The notes under the pieces were generated by a model that ran no database searches, was not told the DNA's origin, and was given only the letters and a program-made list of their open reading frames with translations. Position numbers and translations under genes: made by a program. Below are positions 1,802 through 10,763 of a stretch of DNA of 64,000 nt, piece by piece (within the stretch, counting starts at the first letter, position 1; each line of letters begins with the position of its first letter). The stretch is from a virus (lineage: Duplodnaviria > Caudoviricetes), in the IMG/VR virus record IMGVR_UViG_2974638963_000001, positions 1 to 64,000 of that record. One strand, 5' to 3'.

Positions 1802-3565
1802 TTATGCGCGGTATTTCCCGTCTGTGATACGCACTAATTGACGCTGACCGTTGTTATAGGTAATCAAGTGCGTTTGAGTCCAGCTAGAAGCCCCGATATT
1901 ATAGCCCATATCTAATGAGCCAGCAACGCCAGCAGTGTAACATAAGCCGTTAACGCTTGCACTATGAGTGTGACCAGTGTTTAAGCGTCCTAACTTCGCA
2001 AACTGTTTAGGATTCCCCCGTGAGCCATTAGCCCCAACATGACCATGACAGCCCATTTCTACGCCAGCGACCTTGAAAGATTCATCAACAACTAGGAAAC
2101 GAATCTGATTAGCATTTTCTAACTTAGCTATCTTTTTCAAGCCCACTTCTAGGGCATTCCAGCCGCTTGCGGATTTATGTTCCGCAATATGGCGATATTT
2201 ATCAAGGTTCATCTCATGATAAAGAATAGCATTAGCAGGATCTAGCCCTATATTAACATCCCATGCTTTGAGCCAGTTGGCTAGAGCTAAATCATGATTG
2301 GACTCAACCACAATGATTTCACTGAATGGGCGCATGATATCGCGGAAAATGTTAGCCGTATCAATGAGATCTTGTTTAACGCTTTCTTGCCCTAAGTAGT
2401 AACGCTCCGCAATAAAATCATAATCACGTCTATTGTGATGATTTCGGCTTGTAAAGTCGTGGCTATCATGACAGATAGTAAACTTAGGTTTTAACAAGTC
2501 AATCATCGACGGGTAGCCATGCAAGCCAGCACCCCATGAACAAGCCGCTACAACATGATCAATCTTTTCTGCATGAAGATCACCGAACTGTAAAGCAGAA
2601 ACATGATTTTCAGCTCTAAACACTTGATCACTTGTTACATAAGTATCAAGATCATAAAACGAGCCATCATCATTCATGCACTGTAAATGGCGTATAAATG
2701 GCGTGTCATTATCGTCGAACTCAACTAAGATTGCACCATAGCAATGCAATGATTCTGCTTTCTGACCAGCTAGGCGCTGAATATAATTTCGATGTGTGAC
2801 CGTCCCCGTTGTAGTTAACTCTCTAACTAGCTCACCTTTAAGAGCAGGGATATTAAACATTTGATACTTGGCAGCAGGTACAACCGCATGATGATTGCCT
2901 ATAATGCTTTCAATGCCTGTTAATGGGTTAATAGCAGTAGGGGAAATGCATAAAGCACCTAAGAAAGATACTTTCTTACTTTCGCCTAGAAACACGTTTT
3001 CCTCAACAAAATATGGGGTTAATTCTGGCGCATACCACAATGAATCATCTTGCGCGGTCGGATTCGCAAAGCCTTTCTTGTTATATGCAAACTTAGAAAT
3101 GATTAATTCAGCTCCTAAATACTCTGCATACGTTTCTAAGGATTTCAAGAAAGGCACGTTAACAGAAGTATTATTTTGCGCGGTTGTCAAAATAAATGCT
3201 TTACCTGATTTAACTTGCCATTTTGATTGAGCAGGTTTTAGAGAGCCACCATATACAGGCAAATCAGGGTTATCAGCTTTACGGGCTTTAGCCTTTGTTA
3301 TTGGCTTGTTCTCGTCTAGCCATACTCTAAGCGCAGCCGTGAATTCTGGTTTAATAGCTTGCTCACCGTCCTCATTGTCATACGCTAGATTTTCCGCTAT
3401 AACATCGACTAAAGTAGACAGCGCAAACGCTTCGTTTGCCGTTTTATCTTTTACGGATTCTAGGCGTTTTCCGTAGTAATTAACACCTTTAGCGCATTCT
3501 AGCAGGTCAGCCGCCAGATTTTTATCTGCTAATAGGTCTGAAATAGTTTTTAAAATGGGATTCAT
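1802..3565 (-). CDS. A1: A1 protein (host DNA degradation / second-step transfer; metallophosphoesterase-like)
   Basis: GDLH, SNHD, HGH, GHTHS motifs; size and T5 synteny. Confidence 0.85.
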   Translation of the reverse strand: MNPILKTISDLLADKNLAADLLECAKGVNYYGKRLESVKDKTANEAFALSTLVDVIAENLAYDNEDGEQAIKPEFTAALRVWLDENKPITKAKARKADNPDLPVYGGSLKPAQSKWQVKSGKAFILTTAQNNTSVNVPFLKSLETYAEYLGAELIISKFAYNKKGFANPTAQDDSLWYAPELTPYFVEENVFLGESKKVSFLGALCISPTAINPLTGIESIIGNHHAVVPAAKYQMFNIPALKGELVRELTTTGTVTHRNYIQRLAGQKAESLHCYGAILVEFDDNDTPFIRHLQCMNDDGSFYDLDTYVTSDQVFRAENHVSALQFGDLHAEKIDHVVAACSWGAGLHGYPSMIDLLKPKFTICHDSHDFTSRNHHNRRDYDFIAERYYLGQESVKQDLIDTANIFRDIMRPFSEIIVVESNHDLALANWLKAWDVNIGLDPANAILYHEMNLDKYRHIAEHKSASGWNALEVGLKKIAKLENANQIRFLVVDESFKVAGVEMGCHGHVGANGSRGNPKQFAKLGRLNTGHTHSASVNGLCYTAGVAGSLDMGYNIGASSWTQTHLITYNNGQRQLVRITDGKYRA

Positions 3566-3640
3566 TTATATAGCTCCTAATTAAAGGGTTTTAGTGGTAA
3601 CGAACTAGCCACCTCCGAAAAGGTGACTAGGGCGGATCAC

Positions 3641-4105
3641 TTATAGGCGGTCAATGCCATTTTCTTCCATAATGCCCTGTAATACATCATCAGGGCATAC
3701 CTTTTTAACAATCATAATGATTGTATCAAGGTTGGCTTTTTCAAGACTAGCCCAATCATCTTTTTCTTGGTCGTTGTCGGACATATCACGCTGAAGGGCA
3801 CGAATCAGAGTGATTTTTTGTAATTTCTTACCGCCGCCAACTGGCTGCTTTACTTCAAGGGCACGATAAATTTTGTTACCGTTTTCATCTTTAGAAGATG
3901 ATAACTTAGTACGGACAGCCGTAGCCGTGTATGTTTCACCATCACCGCTAATTTGTTCACCGATGGATGCTAGATTATCGACAGCGTTTGCCGATGCAAT
4001 TTCTTCGTCGGTCGGTTCAGCAGGGTTAACAAATGCCGCTAAATATAAGTTGATAGCTTTTGCGGTTACTTCTTCATTCCAGCGTTTTTTAGATGGAGTA
4101 GACAT
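3641..4105 (-). CDS. A2: A2-like DNA-binding second-step transfer protein
   Basis: 154 aa directly upstream of A1; AVRTKL..Y and SLEKANL segments resemble T5 A2. Confidence 0.65.
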   Translation of the reverse strand: MSTPSKKRWNEEVTAKAINLYLAAFVNPAEPTDEEIASANAVDNLASIGEQISGDGETYTATAVRTKLSSSKDENGNKIYRALEVKQPVGGGKKLQKITLIRALQRDMSDNDQEKDDWASLEKANLDTIIMIVKKVCPDDVLQGIMEENGIDRL

Positions 4106-4304
4106 AATTTAATACCTCATTTTTCATGGTTTAAGTTTAAGTTATACACTTCTCATTAGTGTATTATGAATAGAGCCTGTCTGTCAAGCCCTATTAATTA
4201 CACTATCAAGAGGAGTCTAAGCAATGGCAACTGCTTAATGAAGCCCTGAATTTCAAGGCTTGTTTAAGCATCCAATCTTAGCTATTTCACCGTGTTTTCC
4301 GTAT

Positions 4305-4316
4305 TGTTAAAGAGCG
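4305..4316 (-). promoter_or_regulatory. boxA (NusB/NusE site) preceded by a GCAA-tetraloop boxB-like hairpin (4318-4333)
   Basis: CGCTCTTTAACA on minus strand just after a sigma70 promoter. Confidence 0.7.
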
Positions 4317-4342
4317 TGGTTAGTTGCCTAACCTTTGAATCT

Positions 4343-4371
4343 ATCTTATATCAGCCGCCTGATTTTGTCAA
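4343..4371 (-). promoter_or_regulatory. sigma70 pre-early promoter
   Basis: TTGACA-17-TAAGAT. Confidence 0.8.
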
Positions 4372-4375
4372 GCGT

Positions 4376-4675
4376 TTATTTCCAAATACTTCTATTAATG
4401 CTTTGTTGCGATTCTATCGTTTCTACAACCTGAATCACTATGCCTAGATTATGCCATGCTTCGCTTGCCTTGTCAAACAGTTTTTTATCACCGTCGAAAT
4501 ACTGATCTAGCGTAGCCTTGTAAGCGTTGCGAATTATCTTAGCTTCTTTCCTTAGCCTTGTCAAGTCGATTCTATGATCTATTCTCTCGGTCAATGCTTC
4601 GTTTGCCGTAATGCCCTGAGAAGCTACTAGAGTGCATAATACTTGATTAAAAGATTGTTTTGCCATATTTGCCAT
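4376..4675 (-). CDS. hypothetical pre-early protein
   Basis: 99 aa ORF with GAGGA RBS. Confidence 0.7.
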   Translation of the reverse strand: MANMAKQSFNQVLCTLVASQGITANEALTERIDHRIDLTRLRKEAKIIRNAYKATLDQYFDGDKKLFDKASEAWHNLGIVIQVVETIESQQSINRSIWK

Positions 4676-4714
4676 TCCTCAATAGTTAGGTTAGGCGGCT
4701 GATATAAGTTAGAT

Positions 4715-4726
4715 TGTTAAAGAGCG
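4715..4726 (-). promoter_or_regulatory. boxA
   Basis: CGCTCTTTAACA downstream of promoter. Confidence 0.7.
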
Positions 4727-4742
4727 TGTTTCTATGGTTAGT

Positions 4743-4771
4743 ATCTTAAAGCCTAGTATTGTTTTTGTCAA
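4743..4771 (-). promoter_or_regulatory. sigma70 pre-early promoter
   Basis: TTGACA-17-TAAGAT. Confidence 0.8.
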
Positions 4772-5113
4772 CTATTTATTTGTGTACTGCATAACATTTT
4801 CTATATATACGATTCTAACCGCTATATATAAGCAACGATAGAAGCGCAAGGCTAATTGATCTTTTGCTATCCCGTAGTGAATAGGCATTTTTGACGCTTC
4901 GGGAAATTTTTCTTCTAGATCTGATAATAGGCGAGTTAATGAAGCCCATTTAACAGAACCATTATCAAGCCCTTTTTCAAGATCTAACATGATGCAAGTT
5001 GCTACCTTATCGATATCATTTCTAACCACTATAGGAAATGATAATAATTCTAGTATTAACTGTAATGTATCATTGCTTAAAAAGGTTGCTTTAATCTTTC
5101 TTGCTTTTGCCAT
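4772..5113 (-). CDS. hypothetical pre-early protein
   Basis: 113 aa ORF with GGAG RBS. Confidence 0.7.
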   Translation of the reverse strand: MAKARKIKATFLSNDTLQLILELLSFPIVVRNDIDKVATCIMLDLEKGLDNGSVKWASLTRLLSDLEEKFPEASKMPIHYGIAKDQLALRFYRCLYIAVRIVYIENVMQYTNK

Positions 5114-5162
5114 TTGTATTTACTCCGATAGTATATACTAGGCTTTAAGATACTAACCGTAT

Positions 5163-5174
5163 TTTTAAAGAGCG
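5163..5174 (-). promoter_or_regulatory. boxA
   Basis: CGCTCTTTAAAA, third copy. Confidence 0.6.
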
Positions 5175-5467
5175 TTACTACTAGGAACTTATCCAGTTAT
5201 TCATATGCCACTGGCGGCTACTTCGTGGGCTTTCCTTGCCTTGTTCCTTACTATGTGACTAAGTATACATGAGCCAATTTAAAAAGCAACTATTATTTTT
5301 AATTATTTTGCTGGCGGTAGTGTATAAGGAAACGGGCGCGTGATTATACACAAGTTAACTAGGAAGTAAAGAAAATTACTTATTAAAAAGATACAAAAAG
5401 AGCTTGCATTTAACAACCGTGGTGCTAATATATATCTCATCGAAAGGCAAACAAAGGAGGTAGCAAA

Positions 5468-6547
5468 ATGACCGTCAAGGCACTTAAAAGCAATCGAGCG
5501 ATAGCTCGAAGCGGTCACATTAACACAATTGAGCAATTAAGACAATCAGACGTTGGGGGTTTTCCATCAACTAGTATTGTTAGACGAGCTACGCCTAGGC
5601 AGCTTAATAATATAATGCATACGGCAGGGAGTACAGAACAATCTGTATTAACTCCTTTAAGTAGTCAAAGTGCGTATAAACATATTAAAAATTTGCTTGA
5701 TTTACTTGTTTCCGGTGTGGTAGAATACATTACAATCTACTCGCCAGATGGTACGTTAATAAGTGATCACTATTATTCTACACGTCGATCTATGGAGGAG
5801 GATTGCGATACCGCCTACTCTAAGGCTAAGGACGATTTACTAATCTTAGCTAAATCTAGTAATGGCATCATGTTAACATGGGGTAGCTATGACGCTAGAA
5901 AGTCGGCAGGTGTGGGCGTCAAGGTAGAGTGTGAGGTTTTCAATCAAAATGATAGCCTATTTGACGTTATCTATGATATATTTAACCATGCTAACTATAA
6001 CGATTTAATTGACGTGGATTTATCCGATAAGCTACGCAATCAGGGCGTTATTATACAGGGTCATACAGTTAGCGAGAACAAGTATACACAAGTAATTATA
6101 GAGGAATTTTTAAAATCATCTATAAGCGAAGCTGGCGAAACAGCAGAGCAACCAATCGAAACCAAAGAGGAAACTAGCAAAATGAAAACAACATTCAGCA
6201 CTATCTTAGCAGAAAACAAAGCAGCAGCAATCAACGCTGGCGAAATGGAAACGGGGCGTTTAGTCGTTAATCGTATTGTGGCAGTCGTTAAAAAGCGTGC
6301 TCCGCTAATGGTTAAAGGGTACATTGATACACCAGTGGGGCGCATTGCCGTAGCAAATTTATTTGCCGCTTTAGTGCGAGAATATCTACCTGATAACGCA
6401 CTGGCAGGACGTGCGGCAGACGGGGCGGTGAAGTCGGCAGCTTATGAAGTATTGCGTGATATTGATATACCAGCAATTCTAGAAGAAGTATTGGCAGGAT
6501 TCAAAGACGCTGAGCCAGCAGCAGCAAGCGAAAAGATCGCACTGTAA
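5468..6547 (+). CDS. hypothetical pre-early protein
   Basis: 359 aa, AAGGAGGT RBS, first gene of the rightward pre-early unit; possible internal start at 6182. Confidence 0.8.
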   Translation: MTVKALKSNRAIARSGHINTIEQLRQSDVGGFPSTSIVRRATPRQLNNIMHTAGSTEQSVLTPLSSQSAYKHIKNLLDLLVSGVVEYITIYSPDGTLISDHYYSTRRSMEEDCDTAYSKAKDDLLILAKSSNGIMLTWGSYDARKSAGVGVKVECEVFNQNDSLFDVIYDIFNHANYNDLIDVDLSDKLRNQGVIIQGHTVSENKYTQVIIEEFLKSSISEAGETAEQPIETKEETSKMKTTFSTILAENKAAAINAGEMETGRLVVNRIVAVVKKRAPLMVKGYIDTPVGRIAVANLFAALVREYLPDNALAGRAADGAVKSAAYEVLRDIDIPAILEEVLAGFKDAEPAAASEKIAL

Positions 6548-6595
6548 TTTGATGGTAGGGGCTAGAACTTAGCCCCTAATTAAAGAGGTGATACA

Positions 6596-6997
6596 ATGGC
6601 AAAAGTTATAAATTTTGAGTGTGTACACGTCTTAAATATCCGTACAACGGGGCAAGCGTTAACATGGGAGAGCGCACTAGAACAGATTAGTAAGTGTACT
6701 AAATGCCAATATGTTACTGTTACATTAGGTCGCTTGGTTTTCCGTATTGACTGGCTAATACTGGCTAGCATTTACGAATCTTTACAATTAAATATGCCGT
6801 TTAGTGTTGCGGTAGGGGGCGAAGTCTGGTATATTGAACAATATCAGGACGTGGAACAATTGTTTTATAACGTTTCTGTAAGCCGTCTTTTTATGAAAGA
6901 GGGAGTAGCTTATTATGTGGGCGATATTATCGGGCTATGTGGAAAAGTTACTAAGGGTCAAGGGATTACGAATCATAGTACTGTTAATTTTAGCTGA
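6596..6997 (+). CDS. hypothetical protein
   Basis: 133 aa, GAGGT RBS. Confidence 0.7.
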   Translation: MAKVINFECVHVLNIRTTGQALTWESALEQISKCTKCQYVTVTLGRLVFRIDWLILASIYESLQLNMPFSVAVGGEVWYIEQYQDVEQLFYNVSVSRLFMKEGVAYYVGDIIGLCGKVTKGQGITNHSTVNFS

Positions 6998-7472
6998 ACT
7001 ATTATATCGTGTTTTCTTTGAATCTAAGTATTACTTTTATACGCTCCAATGACTATATTTAAAGTGTTACTAGTTAGCGGCTGTATATGTATAGTTTGGC
7101 ATTTACTAGCCCATTGGCTAGATAATAGACGATTAAAACGTATGGGTAAAGGATGATATCTAACCTATAGGGGGGTTAAAATGTGGGATCTATTTCTATC
7201 CCCCAATGGGGATTTAAACTGGCTTTCTTTGTTGCTGGCGGCTGTATGCACTATAGCTATTCTAGTGATCTTTGATGATAACGAGCCGTTACTATAGGGG
7301 CTTTATATGAAGTGTGACAAGGTAGGCGTATATTGCAACATTCTAGCGGCTGGCATCTTTGGGTTAATGATTTTATCATGTATCTTAAAGTAATTCTTTA
7401 TATGTTGGCTATTTTATGCCCTGTGTTCGGGGCTTCAAGCGGCTTAATGTGGTTAATGACTATATTAGCAGG

Positions 7473-7877
7473 ATAGCACAAAAAGCTAAAACAATTTAAT
7501 CTAGGTAGGGTAATATAGCCCTACTAACACAAAACGAGGGTTTAAACATGGAAAAATTAAAACTGGCATTCCCTACTGCATTTTCTGAGCTAGTTGAATG
7601 CTTTGGGGAAAAGCAAGCTGAAATTGAGCTTGAGAAGTTAGTCGAGCGTCAAAAGATTAACCCTAAGTTAGATTTAGAAGATAAACCGCTTCTAGCTGCT
7701 TTTGTGTGGGAAGAAACGGAACAGGGTCATGAATACTGGCGAGAGCTTCTATACTCAAAAGATTTATTGCCACCACTGTTTTATTTTCTGTCCGACTCTA
7801 GTCATACAGACGACGAATAGCACAAAAAGCTAAAACAAATTAATCTAGGTAGGGTAATATAGCCCTACCAACACAAA
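7473..7877 (+). repeat. ~60 bp direct repeat (7473-7533 and 7817-7877) preceding two paralogous ORFs
   Basis: ATAGCACAAAAAGCTAAAACAAWTTAATCTAGGTAGGGTAATATAGCCCTACYAACACAAA twice. Confidence 0.9.
7548..7820 (+). CDS. hypothetical protein (paralog of next ORF)
   Basis: AFVWEETEQGHEYW motif. Confidence 0.75.
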   Translation: MEKLKLAFPTAFSELVECFGEKQAEIELEKLVERQKINPKLDLEDKPLLAAFVWEETEQGHEYWRELLYSKDLLPPLFYFLSDSSHTDDE

Positions 7878-7906
7878 TAAACCAATGATTTGAGAGGTAG
7901 TAAAAA

Positions 7907-8335
7907 ATGACCATTATCCAACGTATGCCTAAATTTGTTTCTACTATGGTAGCAGTATTTGACGGGGACGCAGACCTTGCAGCGCAGATCATTAACGAGT
8001 TAGAAGCGGCAGGGGTAGAATTCGCAGAAAAAGATTGTGTTAGCTTGGGCGCGGCTTTTGATTGGCAGCAATCCCCGCAAGGTCGGGAGTATTGGGATAT
8101 GATGGACGATAAAGCGGAGCAGGTACTAGGCGAAGATTACCGCTTGCCAGACTTTCAAGAGTGCGGTTGTCCAGCTTGTCAGATGACCGTTAAATTAGGC
8201 GGCACAATTGATGCAATCATGGTTGTAGGATCGCTGGGCTTGCTAGTAGAGGCTATTCCTGAGCCAATGATCAAAGATATGGTAACTCGTGCTAAGGAAG
8301 ATCGCCTTAAAGAAAGAGCAGGGCGCACGCACTAA
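7907..8335 (+). CDS. hypothetical protein
   Basis: AFDWQQSPQGREYW motif and CGCPAC. Confidence 0.75.
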   Translation: MTIIQRMPKFVSTMVAVFDGDADLAAQIINELEAAGVEFAEKDCVSLGAAFDWQQSPQGREYWDMMDDKAEQVLGEDYRLPDFQECGCPACQMTVKLGGTIDAIMVVGSLGLLVEAIPEPMIKDMVTRAKEDRLKERAGRTH

Positions 8336-8578
8336 CACTAATAAAAGCCCCCTGAACCAATAGGGGGCGTTTAAGGAGAAGTTATAATGATTATTTTTAC
8401 TTTGTGGGGCGTCATTCAGTGGGCTACTTTAGTCTATATATTGGTTACTCCGTATATTTTAGAAGCGGTTGTAACTCAACAATTAGCAGGCTTATAATAT
8501 TTGACTAGCTTATGCTCTTATGATACATTAAGAGCATAGACGAGTTAAATTAAACCGTAAATAATCGAGGATATCAAA

Positions 8579-8848
8579 ATGAAATTAACTAAATTGGTGT
8601 TAGCTACTTTGGTGTTAGGCTTGGCAGGTTGCGCGACTACTGGCGAAAAACCAGCTATAACCCCTAAAACGTGTATAGGCATCATGGAGGTTTCAACCAT
8701 GAATAAAACCTACTCGGTGGACTTGAAAGCCGTCAAAACTAACAAGTATGGCGAAACGTTCTATCAGGTTAAAGGCTACAATCCATTTGTAGGCGGGGCA
8801 GGTTGGGTTCGTGAAGATGCTTTTCAGTCTGTAATGTGTGATGAATGA
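8579..8848 (+). CDS. lipoprotein, Cor-like superinfection-exclusion candidate
   Basis: LAGC lipobox, second Cys pair, Y-S-V...GWV...C pattern reminiscent of Cor. Confidence 0.55.
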   Translation: MKLTKLVLATLVLGLAGCATTGEKPAITPKTCIGIMEVSTMNKTYSVDLKAVKTNKYGETFYQVKGYNPFVGGAGWVREDAFQSVMCDE

Positions 8849-9041
8849 GATCATCTATATTAAACGCTTTATATCCCTATACTGGCACTTTATAGGGGTA
8901 GTGGAAGCGATGCACGAAAAGGCAGTTAGTGAGAATCACCAATACGGGATTGACCTAACTAGACGTAAACTAGACCGCCTTAAAATTGATCTGCTAGGCT
9001 GGCAAGATAAGCTGATGCATGAGATAAAAAATACAAAATAG
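8838..9041 (+). CDS. hypothetical protein
   Basis: 67 aa, overlaps previous stop. Confidence 0.55.
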   Translation: MMNEIIYIKRFISLYWHFIGVVEAMHEKAVSENHQYGIDLTRRKLDRLKIDLLGWQDKLMHEIKNTK

Positions 9042-9104
9042 TCATTGACAATATAGCCCTTTCGATGTATATTATATGCATACACCAAACGAGAGGGTTA
9101 CAAA

Positions 9105-9335
9105 ATGATTATTCGTATTTCTGGCATTAACATCAACAACGATTTAGATATGTTTGACGCACTGGCAAGCGCAGGCTATGCAGGGGCACTAGATCGCCTA
9201 GATGATATAACAGCAGAGTTAGACGTGAGAGATTATGCCTTTAGACAACGGGCAGGGATCGAGGAAGCGCAAGTGATGCACCTATTGCGAGAACTTACCG
9301 AGATAGACGGGTTAAAAATATCTATTGGTAACTAA
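9105..9335 (+). CDS. hypothetical protein (last pre-early gene)
   Basis: 76 aa with own promoter (TTGACA at 9045) and RBS. Confidence 0.7.
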   Translation: MIIRISGININNDLDMFDALASAGYAGALDRLDDITAELDVRDYAFRQRAGIEEAQVMHLLRELTEIDGLKISIGN

Positions 9336-9345
9336 CAACCCCAAC

Positions 9346-9372
9346 AGCCTTGCAGAAATGCAGGGCTTTTTT
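9346..9372 (+). terminator. intrinsic terminator ending rightward pre-early transcription
   Basis: AGCCTTGCA-GAAA-TGCAGGGCT followed by T-run. Confidence 0.85.
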
Positions 9373-9485
9373 GTACCCCCAATAAACAAGCCCCTACCTT
9401 ACTACCCCATCAACAATAAAACCTCTCACATTGGCTTACACAGAGCGTCATAATAGACAACCGCATATTGTTCTAAGTCTATAAG

Positions 9486-9501
9486 CTGTATATCTATACA
9501 G
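9486..9501. promoter_or_regulatory. LexA (SOS) box
   Basis: CTGTATATCTATACAG = CTGT-N8-ACAG with AT-alternating core. Confidence 0.8.
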
Positions 9502-9510
9502 GGTCAAAAC

Positions 9511-9532
9511 TGTGGATAACTTCTGTGGATAA
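9511..9532 (-). promoter_or_regulatory. two perfect DnaA boxes
   Basis: TGTGGATAA at 9511-9519 and 9524-9532; a 1-mismatch copy at 9575-9583. Confidence 0.85.
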
Positions 9533-9537
9533 GTCGA

Positions 9538-9553
9538 TCTGAATCGTTTCAGC
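9538..9553. promoter_or_regulatory. Cra (FruR) operator
   Basis: TCTGAATCGTTTCAGC vs consensus GCTGAAWCGWTTCAGC. Confidence 0.75.
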
Positions 9554-9561
9554 AAGCCCCC

Positions 9562-9578
9562 AACTGGTCAGACCTGTG
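9562..9578. promoter_or_regulatory. FadR operator
   Basis: AACTGGTCAGACCTGTG vs AACTGGTCNGACCAGTT. Confidence 0.7.
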
Positions 9579-9594
9579 GGTAACTTCTAAACGC

Positions 9595-9615
9595 AAGTGA
9601 GAAGCATTCGCATTC
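9595..9615. promoter_or_regulatory. Fur-box-like site
   Basis: AAG-TGAGAAG-C-ATTCGCA-TTC vs 7-1-7 TGATAAT-N-ATTATCA (10/14). Confidence 0.55.
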
Positions 9616-9619
9616 ATTT

Positions 9620-9691
9620 AGCCGTCTAAACGTCTGGACGTCTAAACGTCTAGATGGCTGGACGTCTAGATGGCTGGACGTCTAGACGTCC
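9620..9691. promoter_or_regulatory. nine tandem in-phase MetJ boxes
   Basis: AGCCGTCT AAACGTCT GGACGTCT AAACGTCT AGATGGCT GGACGTCT AGATGGCT GGACGTCT AGACGTCC vs AGACGTCT. Confidence 0.8.
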
Positions 9692-9821
9692 CTCTGCGCT
9701 TATGTGCGTAATCGGGATCGCTTTTTCAAAACGTTACATGCGAGCTAGGCTACATGTGAATTTCTGAAAATGCAAATTCCAAAATTCTCGAAAAAATTTT
9801 TCCATTCGTAAAATATTCTCT

Positions 9822-10048
9822 CCTGCTCCCTGGCTATCTAAAATAAACTCAAAAATAAAACCAACCACCAGCAATTCTCCAACCTTAAAAAATAAAACGT
9901 CTTCAGAAGATTCAACGAGTCTCTTTTATGGGACTCGATTTTATTTTTGTCTTTGAGTAATGCTATCACCTTAGTTTACAAATCAGTTTTGAGAAGCTGT
10001 TTTATTTTTGGTGCTTAAAGTTTGCTGGTGGATTTGCCGGGGAGCAGG
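9822..10048. repeat. imperfect long inverted repeat
   Basis: CCTGCTCCCTGGC/GCCGGGGAGCAGG, CCACCAGCAA/TTGCTGGTGG, AAAAATAAAAC/GTTTTATTTTT nested. Confidence 0.7.
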
Positions 10049-10763
10049 GGAGGAGAAAACCAAAAGATCTACTTGACAACCAGTTTTGCAGAAACCAAAT
10101 AACGAACCTTGCACACTAGGATTTTATAAACTAGGAATAAATATGCTCTCACGAAATAGGCGTGAGCAATTCTCCAGTCCCCCGGCTGACTTGTTTTACT
10201 GGAATGTCTTCTAGGATGCAAAATATTTAGTGGGATTATTTCTTAGCGTGGATGATCTTGAGGAAGTCTTGAGAGGATGTGGGTAGATATTAGAGGATGT
10301 GCCGGGGAACAGGAGAGGAAATCTTAAGGGGCCCAGGAAAATCGTTGTTTGTAGAAAAACGCACTTAAAACAACCCCCCTGGTAACTAACCGCCTTATAT
10401 CGAAAAATTATGACCTTAAAGGTGGGTAAAGGGCTTGAAAAATAAAAAATTCATGAGGCCCCAAGAACTGGATGATTCAACGCCCCTGTACCCTGGCAAA
10501 TCATGGTAGAACTCCAGTTTTAAATAGATATGATGTGGCACGTGGGTAGGATGAACTTTTATTATCTAGAGGTGATGTATATTGGAAGCGGAAAGGATGA
10601 GGATTTACAGTGGCTAGGAAGAGTCAAAGAAAGGCTTTTGGTGACATTCGGGGAACAGGAGAAAATTATAAAACTAGAATCTCTAGGAAATTGATATGAC
10701 ATCTCCTAGCAAGTCCAGGGTATCAAAGGTTCCAGTTCTATTATTATGTTTAGTATAGATAAT

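Follow-up and report, generated by a model that had tools for sequence, protein, structure and literature searches.

The leftward pre-early operon of a T5-like Providencia phage is laid out as successive units, each consisting of a boxA element, the 5' strand of a predicted long-range RNA helix, a small open reading frame (ORF), and the 3' strand of the helix, which coincides with the core of the next promoter and is followed by another boxA. The DNA analysed here (the window) comprises 64,000 nucleotides (nt), positions 1-64000 of a virus record that is 118,537 bp long and carries direct terminal repeats (IMG/VR record IMGVR_UViG_2974638963_000001), and Providencia phage PSTCR5 (Priunavirus, Demerecviridae), with ~95% identity over the region, is the closest public relative. 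The feature is located in the left terminal repeat (pre-early, first-step-transfer DNA). Because it sits in a terminal repeat there are two copies per genome: the right terminal repeat holds a second copy of the whole feature, at ~112.4-113.3 kb of the genome. Substitution patterns in related phages make it very probable that the helix associated with boxA is maintained by selection on the sense transcript, and the order of elements is that of the ribosomal RNA (rrn) operons of enterobacteria.

boxA sites and long-range helices of the pre-early operon

The pattern GYTCTTTAANA, the boxA consensus derived for gamma-proteobacteria (PMC5725501), is matched perfectly at only three places in the 64-kb window, and these share the minus strand and lie within 870 nt, against a chance expectation of 0.92 matches over the whole window. 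These are the three boxA copies of an original prediction made from the sequence alone, which had misplaced them by one base. The same prediction had described two ORFs flanked by complementary arms, and both the ORFs and the arm pairs are present. Around ORF1, positions 5135-5158 pair with 4736-4759 at 24 of 24 positions, extending to 27 nt with one mismatch (96%), as helix 1; around ORF2, positions 4693-4715 pair with 4338-4360 at 22 of 23 positions (96%), as helix 2. The two helices are the top two inverted repeats within the first 12 kb, and their pairing scores of 24 and 19.5 compare with best shuffled scores of 14-14.5 (300 trials in which the 5' segment was shuffled). The minimum-free-energy fold of the read-through transcript from promoter P1 is closed by the 24-bp helix 1 (z = -3.2). 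Both helices are near-perfect duplexes of ~20 bp or longer flanking a payload, and at 23-24 bp they would close loops of 330-375 nt containing the ORF. The arms of successive units have no sequence in common, and both arm strands of a helix are present only in read-through RNA. The 3' strand of a helix ends 2-10 nt before each boxA, this helix being the outer stem of the leader RNA R1 (described below) for boxA1, helix 1 for boxA2, and a GCAA hairpin, also correctly predicted, for boxA3. The positions of these features are listed in Table 1.

The 3' arms were originally said to cover the spacer, -10 element and start site of the next promoter, and a promoter scan calls P2 and P3 exactly there. 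The stop codon of ORF1 (4774-4772) adjoins the -35 element of P2, and that of ORF2 (4378-4376) is 4 nt ahead of the -35 element of P3, so that the promoter core is essentially the sole non-coding sequence downstream of each ORF. The overlap between arm and promoter is therefore most simply put down to a near or complete lack of further intergenic sequence from the stop to the next -35. The predicted start sites, ~4735 for P2 and ~4335 for P3, are the final bases of the 3' arms; RNA from these promoters would thus lack the arm and begin ~10 nt (P2) or ~20 nt (P3) before boxA.

Two other interpretations of this geometry had been put forward: that the 5'-arm RNA of each leader invades the next promoter by pairing with its melted non-template strand, producing a timed cascade, or that the processed mRNAs are circularised. 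Neither found support, and we consider both scarcely credible. The overlap of arm and promoter, the sole observation in their favour, is better explained by the shortage of other intergenic sequence; P2 and P3, which are strong and close to consensus, require no activation; and we know of no precedent or enzyme for promoter invasion or mRNA circularisation. The RNA libraries of phage T5 consist of assembled contigs only, which cannot establish RNA ends or single molecules and were given no weight; no back-joined contigs were seen in four of them, which speaks weakly against circularisation, contigs being no proof of absence.

Table 1. Coordinates of features in the leftward pre-early operon, in order of transcription
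Feature	Position	Strand	Basis and remarks
P0, promoter-like TTTACT-16-TATAAT	5343..5370	minus	consensus scan; upstream of P1
P1, TTGCTT-16-TATACT	5262..5289	minus	read by eye
R1, 74-position structured leader RNA	5179..5254	minus	covariance model, 73.8 bits, E 1.7e-22; 5' end of P1 transcript
boxA1, GCTCTTTAAAAA	5173-5162	minus	pattern search, consensus match
Helix 1, 5' arm	5135..5161	minus	inverted-repeat search; starts 1-4 nt past boxA1
ORF1, 113 amino acids	4772-5113	minus	inside helix 1
P2, TTGACA-17-TAAGAT	4771-4743	minus	consensus scan; -35 abuts ORF1 stop
Helix 1, 3' arm	4733..4759	minus	covers P2 from spacer through -10 and discriminator to predicted +1 (~4735)
boxA2, GCTCTTTAACAA	4725-4714	minus	pattern search; ~10 nt past predicted P2 start
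Helix 2, 5' arm	4693..4715	minus	overlaps final two bases of boxA2
ORF2, 99 amino acids	4376-4675	minus	inside helix 2
P3, TTGACA-17-TAAGAT	4371-4343	minus	consensus scan
Helix 2, 3' arm	4338..4360	minus	spacer and -10 of P3 up to ~+1
Hairpin GGTTAG-GCAA-CTAACC	4333-4318	minus	directly 5' of boxA3; position of boxB in rrn operons
boxA3, GCTCTTTAACAA	4315-4304	minus	pattern search, consensus match; no long-range partner
Local extended hairpin 3' of boxA3	4215..4283, core 4269-4233	minus	region folds with z = -4.0
Promoter-like site before A2, TTGACA-18-TACACT	4158..4187	minus	consensus scan
A2, DNA-binding protein	4105-3641	minus	essential gene served by leftward operon
A1, DNA transfer protein	3565-1802	minus	essential gene served by leftward operon; A2 and A1 span 1802..4105

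Conservation of the bracket in Demerecviridae

With the A1 protein as an anchor, 45 loci were collected from ~30 Demerecviridae contigs plus Serratia phage Slocum, and 4.5 kb upstream of A1 was scanned in each. In nearly every lineage, a boxA precedes an arm that can pair with the core of the next promoter. There are 22 distinct arm pairs of 16-38 nt, each of which begins within a few bases of a boxA, and the helices of relatives measure 23-29 bp; in every pair whose context was read, the partner arm coincides with a promoter-like core close behind a small ORF, and in many cases another boxA follows directly. The arm sequences are lineage-specific, with 5' arms beginning GGTTAGTAT in the window, TTGGGTACAT in T5, TCTGGATACTAAC in Slocum and GGGAACAT in contig L170, and the three consecutive units of contig L182 (26, 27 and 29 nt) are mutually unrelated. 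The enclosed ORFs are not homologous across lineages either, being hdi in T5-like phages and orphans in the window phage.

In T5, boxA is found at positions 4988-4977 of NC_005859, and the adjoining 28-nt strand pairs at 28 of 28 positions (G.U included) with GCCGATAGGCTTTAAGATGTACCCAGTT. The latter sequence is the spacer, -10 and start of a TTGACA-17-TAAGAT promoter, which starts 3 nt short of the end of the T5.008 (hdi) frame and overlaps its stop codon. T5.008 encodes Hdi, an FtsZ-directed inhibitor of host division, and the promoter that overlaps its 3' end is P-D/E20 (bioRxiv 10.64898/2026.04.02.716235). The layout is the same in Slocum, with different flanking sequences. The annotated 35-amino-acid ORF T5.009 (NC_005859 4915-5022) overlies the leader hairpin, boxA and 5' arm of T5; the window phage has no equivalent ORF, and T5.009 may accordingly be an RNA element rather than a gene. 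On the opposite side, the rightward operon of the window has no boxA, and the rightward pre-early operon of Slocum opens with a promoter and a perfect boxA (L013 2633-2644) that has no arm.

The hdi unit was aligned from 16 sequences, in which paired cells and covariation were scored against slid partners and 500 shuffles. Pairing is retained in 99.1% of the helix cells, compared with 32-42% for slid partners, and none of the 500 shuffles reached the observed pairing or covariation score. Four pairs are altered on both sides, including a change of the -10 element from TAAGAT to TAAAAT that is matched in the 5' arm, and seven pairs vary on one side by way of G.U. Among all arm pairs, the cells that are not Watson-Crick comprise 37 G.U and 8 A.C, although these counts are not phylogenetically independent. 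Substitution series from C-G through U.G to U-A are seen in arm pairs, and in L207 a 1-nt insertion in one arm is matched by an insertion in the other. The excess of G.U over A.C together with the C-G/U.G/U-A series is as expected if selection acts on the sense transcript to keep an RNA helix, rather than on a repeat in DNA. Covariation of arm pairs in related phages had been named in the original prediction as one way to check it, and it is seen here as compensatory substitutions, a compensated insertion and 22 distinct pairs. A selected sense-RNA helix associated with boxA is thus strongly suggested by these alignments.

Selection might instead act on the DNA, with the inverted copy of the promoter core, which lacks a -35, serving as a binding site or decoy for sigma-70 RNA polymerase or for a phage protein, such as A1 or A2, that shuts off pre-early promoters, or with the two copies forming a cruciform or loop. 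This would fit with the 3' arm always being a promoter core in these phages and with a report that A1 dampens pre-early promoters (bioRxiv 10.64898/2026.04.02.716235). However, the mismatch spectrum is strand-asymmetric, with substitutions passing via G.U; the inverted copy has, by reading, no usable -35; and brackets found in lambdoid prophages (see below) have 3' arms that are not promoters. Furthermore, the arms of different lineages and of successive units share no sequence and so offer no common protein site. We regard selection at the DNA level as highly unlikely.

A structured leader RNA shared with lambdoid prophages

The 70 nt between P1 and boxA1 gave blastn matches to non-coding sequence a short way past the cI-like repressor gene, which is the position of the PL leader, in many lambdoid phages, among them ST64B, SfV, SfII, mEp460, mEp237 and 118970_sal3. 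A scan of viral contigs for the invariant GCCCACGAAGTAGCC returned more than 100 stretches; 91 unique contexts pass the family filter, directly 3' of promoter-like TTGACA..-10 sites, and the remainder are chance matches in unrelated sequence. The leader RNA family, modelled as R1, spans more than 80 lambdoid prophages, and P1 is placed with respect to the leader RNA just as the early promoters of these prophages are. An alignment of 84 sequences contains three stems with 15 pairs, of which 10 show compensatory changes. The outer stem is GGAAC/GUUCC and the inner stem CCAGU/ACUGG, and two parts are invariant, a GGC/GCC hairpin and the strand GCCCACGAAGUAGCC. When folded alone, the P1 leader has the same energy as shuffled sequences, and the structure emerged only from the alignment.

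The R1 model matches PSTCR5 with 72.4 bits, and gave no match in eight other T5-like loci, including T5 and Slocum. A scan of positions 3500-10500 against Rfam 15 at E values up to 1 found only chance-level matches, so that the leader and the arms fall in no family there, and the invariant leader motif was not found in the searchable literature. The Priunavirus of the window may have taken up a lambdoid early-leader RNA, as a horizontally acquired antitermination or leader module. No phage protein is yet present when P1 first fires; hence R1 must act alone or with host factors, which makes a put-like role in antitermination plausible. Like the put RNAs of HK022 and HK639, R1 is a structured RNA of ~70 nt with which an early lambdoid transcript begins, and it would have to function ahead of all phage protein synthesis. 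In contrast to put, R1 has three stems and an invariant single strand, and it is often followed by a hairpin and boxA, which put sites lack. Actual kinship with put was considered and rejected: the model has no match to HK022 putL or putR or to the annotated putL-like RNA of HK639 (filters off, E up to 10), and blastn likewise finds no similarity. In three lambdoid phages, the first genes past the leader RNA do not resemble N. Another conserved block, AACGTTCCGC...GGCGATAAGG, flanks the leader RNA, downstream in L076 and L119 and upstream in L054, L075 and L145, and may be a further RNA module.

Brackets in lambdoid prophages and T7

A hairpin and boxA are found at a fixed distance past R1 in 16 of the 91 lambdoid contexts. 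The lambdoid boxA is followed by a strand beginning AATCTGGATATCC, which pairs with a strand ending GGATATCCAGATT 490-690 nt downstream (L081, L136, L137, L048 and others); in L081, with the leader core taken as 0, boxA is at +79 and the arms are at ~+88 and ~+645. The 490-690 nt looped out in these prophages seem to carry opposite-strand genes. Among unique contexts of the extended boxA GCTCTTTAACAATCTGG in viral contigs, 27 of 66 have a long-range partner scoring at least 14, and shuffled controls have none. T7 possesses the same extended GCTCTTTAACAATCTGG boxA with an AATCTGG tail, ahead of a hairpin that we take to be the RNase III site R0.3. Judged by these comparisons, the bracket of boxA and helix is a widespread phage design.

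Other features of the pre-early operon

The minus-strand pre-early operon terminates in the genes for A2 and A1, and a promoter/terminator scan called no terminator-like site on the transcribed strand from P0 to A2. P1 was missed by a simple promoter scan because its -35 matches at only three of six positions. A transcript from P0 would open with CGCGCCCGTTTCC (5325-5339), a block that, by reading, T5 has too, ahead of its equivalent promoter (NC_005859 ~5140-5125). Neither ORF1 nor ORF2 matched any Pfam or PHROG family. ORF2 contains two strong promoter-like sites on the minus strand (TTGACA-17-TAAGAT at 4564-4536, and TTGACA-17-CATAAT with TG at 4476-4448), which recall P-H22 within T5 hdi and are not followed by boxA. 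An antisense promoter in the inverted copy of a promoter core was also considered and ruled out by reading, for lack of a usable -35. For the segment 3' of boxA3, a search of everything downstream to the window start found no partner beyond chance (score 11.5 compared with a shuffled mean of 10.5). The extended hairpin that folds locally 3' of boxA3 is a candidate processing site before the A2-A1 genes.

A proposed mechanism and its alternatives

The mechanism of rrn antitermination suggests how these units may work. According to published reports (PMC4807359, PMC10250234, bioRxiv 10.64898/2026.03.17.712431), NusB-NusE bind boxA and, with NusA, NusG and SuhB, form a stable complex that confers faster elongation and resistance to Rho; the complex keeps the 5' leader at the polymerase, so that leader and trailer pair into a helix that RNase III cuts during transcription. 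By analogy, the leftward pre-early operon would be a chain of rrn-like cassettes transcribed by host sigma-70 RNA polymerase. NusB/NusE together with NusA, NusG and SuhB would assemble on boxA, making the polymerase fast and Rho-resistant, and would hold the 5' strand at the RNA exit until the 3' strand emerges and the helix closes. RNase III would then cut the duplex, freeing the ORF as an end-paired mRNA and detaching the used boxA, and the next boxA, ~10 nt further on, would reload the complex as the boxA of the 16S-23S spacer does. The 3' strand ends at the next start site, and processed read-through RNAs and primary RNAs would consequently start alike, with a boxA. Such a mechanism would account for the close attachment of boxA to the 5' arm and the recurrence of boxA past each helix, and under it the last boxA, ahead of the long A2-A1 stretch, needs no partner. 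The analogy to rrn operons drawn in the original prediction gains from the matching order of boxA, 5' strand, payload, 3' strand and next boxA in rrn leaders and spacers, from the covariation in T5-like phages and from the occurrence of the bracket in lambdoid phages. We consider the full mechanism of Nus factors on boxA and cleavage by RNase III to be somewhat more probable than not.

Several points weigh against it. Nus binding, RNase III cleavage of these RNAs and a physiological benefit are what we infer from the analogy. No GU-rich element resembling boxC is evident by eye after any boxA, and both in the window and in its relatives the boxA that closes a series lacks a partner arm. The distant relative L206 has no boxA within 4.5 kb upstream of A1; past P-D/E20, T5 has only the boxA-like GTTCTTTAAAT, which is off consensus; and some arm pairs carry A.C mismatches (two in L164). 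Ribosomes on the translated ORFs could interfere with looping of the RNA. Finally, hdi is dispensable in the laboratory (bioRxiv 10.64898/2026.04.02.716235), and any benefit of its bracket is therefore not essential under laboratory conditions.

Alternatively, the helix may remain uncut and act as a clamp on the enclosed mRNA, either limiting the loading of new ribosomes or protecting both ends from decay. With a 24-bp helix in place 8-10 nt from the Shine-Dalgarno sequence as soon as the 3' strand has been transcribed, small and often toxic pre-early proteins such as Hdi might be made in a brief, self-limiting burst. The 5' arm does end ~10 nt ahead of the ribosome-binding site of ORF1, the gene enclosed in T5 is the toxic division inhibitor hdi, and the bracket persists while the enclosed ORFs are unrelated between lineages. 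However, perfect duplexes of 23-28 bp are canonical substrates of RNase III in enterobacteria, and escape from cleavage would need explaining; moreover, a clamp alone leaves the boxA beside each 5' arm, and its renewal past each helix, unaccounted for. We consider the clamp unlikely, both in its general form and as a device for a self-limiting burst.

The T5 RNA contigs bear on cleavage within the limits stated above. In the coordinates of L204, boxA is at 2859-2870, the 5' arm at 2869-2896, hdi at 2929-3132 and the 3' arm at 3140-3167, with a predicted start at ~3164. One study has contigs of 2500-2877, 2859-3329 and 3331 onward, and in another high-depth contigs begin at 3155, a position within the 3' arm that precedes the predicted start by 9 nt, and at 3331. 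Contig ends at the first base of boxA, within the 5' arm and within the 3' arm are compatible with processing, although contigs do not prove ends, and a single staggered cut by RNase III would not produce those in the arms; these ends and the stretches without cover are hints at most. One contig covers the whole hdi unit across the 3' arm, as would be expected of a clamp, although a contig cannot show that this is a single molecule; one run has no contig. The contigs of both studies break at L204:3330 (NC_005859 ~4517), in the descending strand of a long local hairpin before T5.007, and this shared break hints weakly at an RNase III site like those of T7.

Relationship to known systems

The proposed Nus/RNase III cassette shares with enterobacterial rrn operons (boxB-boxA-boxC, bound by the rrnTAC of NusA, NusB, NusE, NusG, SuhB and S4) an identical boxA consensus, transcription by the host polymerase, and the order of helix, boxA, 5' strand of a long-range helix, payload, 3' strand and new boxA. 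Whereas the rrn payload is an rRNA of 1.5-2.9 kb, here it is a translated ORF of 99-113 amino acids in a loop of ~350 nt; no boxC is evident, the 3' strand doubles as the core of an active promoter, and the system is known from sequence alone. The early region of T7 and T3 (promoters A1-A3, boxA, RNase III sites R0.3 to R1.3) is likewise transcribed by host polymerase and has the same GCTCTTTAACAATCTGG boxA, and T7 early mRNAs are separated by RNase III. In T7, however, there is a single boxA and the RNase III sites are local hairpins between genes, whereas here long-range helices bracket whole genes, each unit has its own boxA, and promoters are embedded in the 3' strands. The lambda nutL/N leader and the suhB leader resemble these units in that a boxA in an mRNA leader recruits Nus factors, and RNase III structures in the N leader modulate expression. 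Unlike lambda nutL, the pre-early units have no N protein and no N-type boxB, and the suhB boxA represses translation and promotes Rho termination without bracketing a gene.

The functions of boxA and Nus factors, the leader-trailer helices of rrn operons and the RNase III sites of T7 are textbook knowledge; T5 is a classical model, and P-D/E20 is among the best-studied strong promoters. No description of boxA sites or of promoter-embedded helix strands in T5-like pre-early operons was found in the literature. Nor was there any account of the P-D/E20 core as one strand of a conserved RNA helix. The present analysis adds the cross-family statistics, the lambdoid brackets and the leader RNA family. 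A broader proposal, which we put forward tentatively and regard as doubtful, is that a miniature rrn cassette is common to phages that depend on host polymerase (T5-like, lambdoid and T7/SP6-like), in which Nus factors on boxA would act as a co-transcriptional RNA chaperone closing gene-sized loops for RNase III and promoter cores would serve as helix strands, and that R1 represents a new class of antiterminator, requiring host factors only or no factor at all, put-like in action and unrelated to put.

If the Nus/RNase III mechanism is correct, the machinery for antitermination and chaperoning of rRNA also works on short translated mRNAs, and the pre-early units would offer a compact, genetically tractable system in which to test the 5'/3' bridging model of rrnTAC. 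It would explain how the first phage proteins are made rapidly and in defined amounts, and why fragments with these promoters are difficult to clone or delete. That the leader RNA is shared suggests that temperate and virulent phages exchange regulatory RNA modules.

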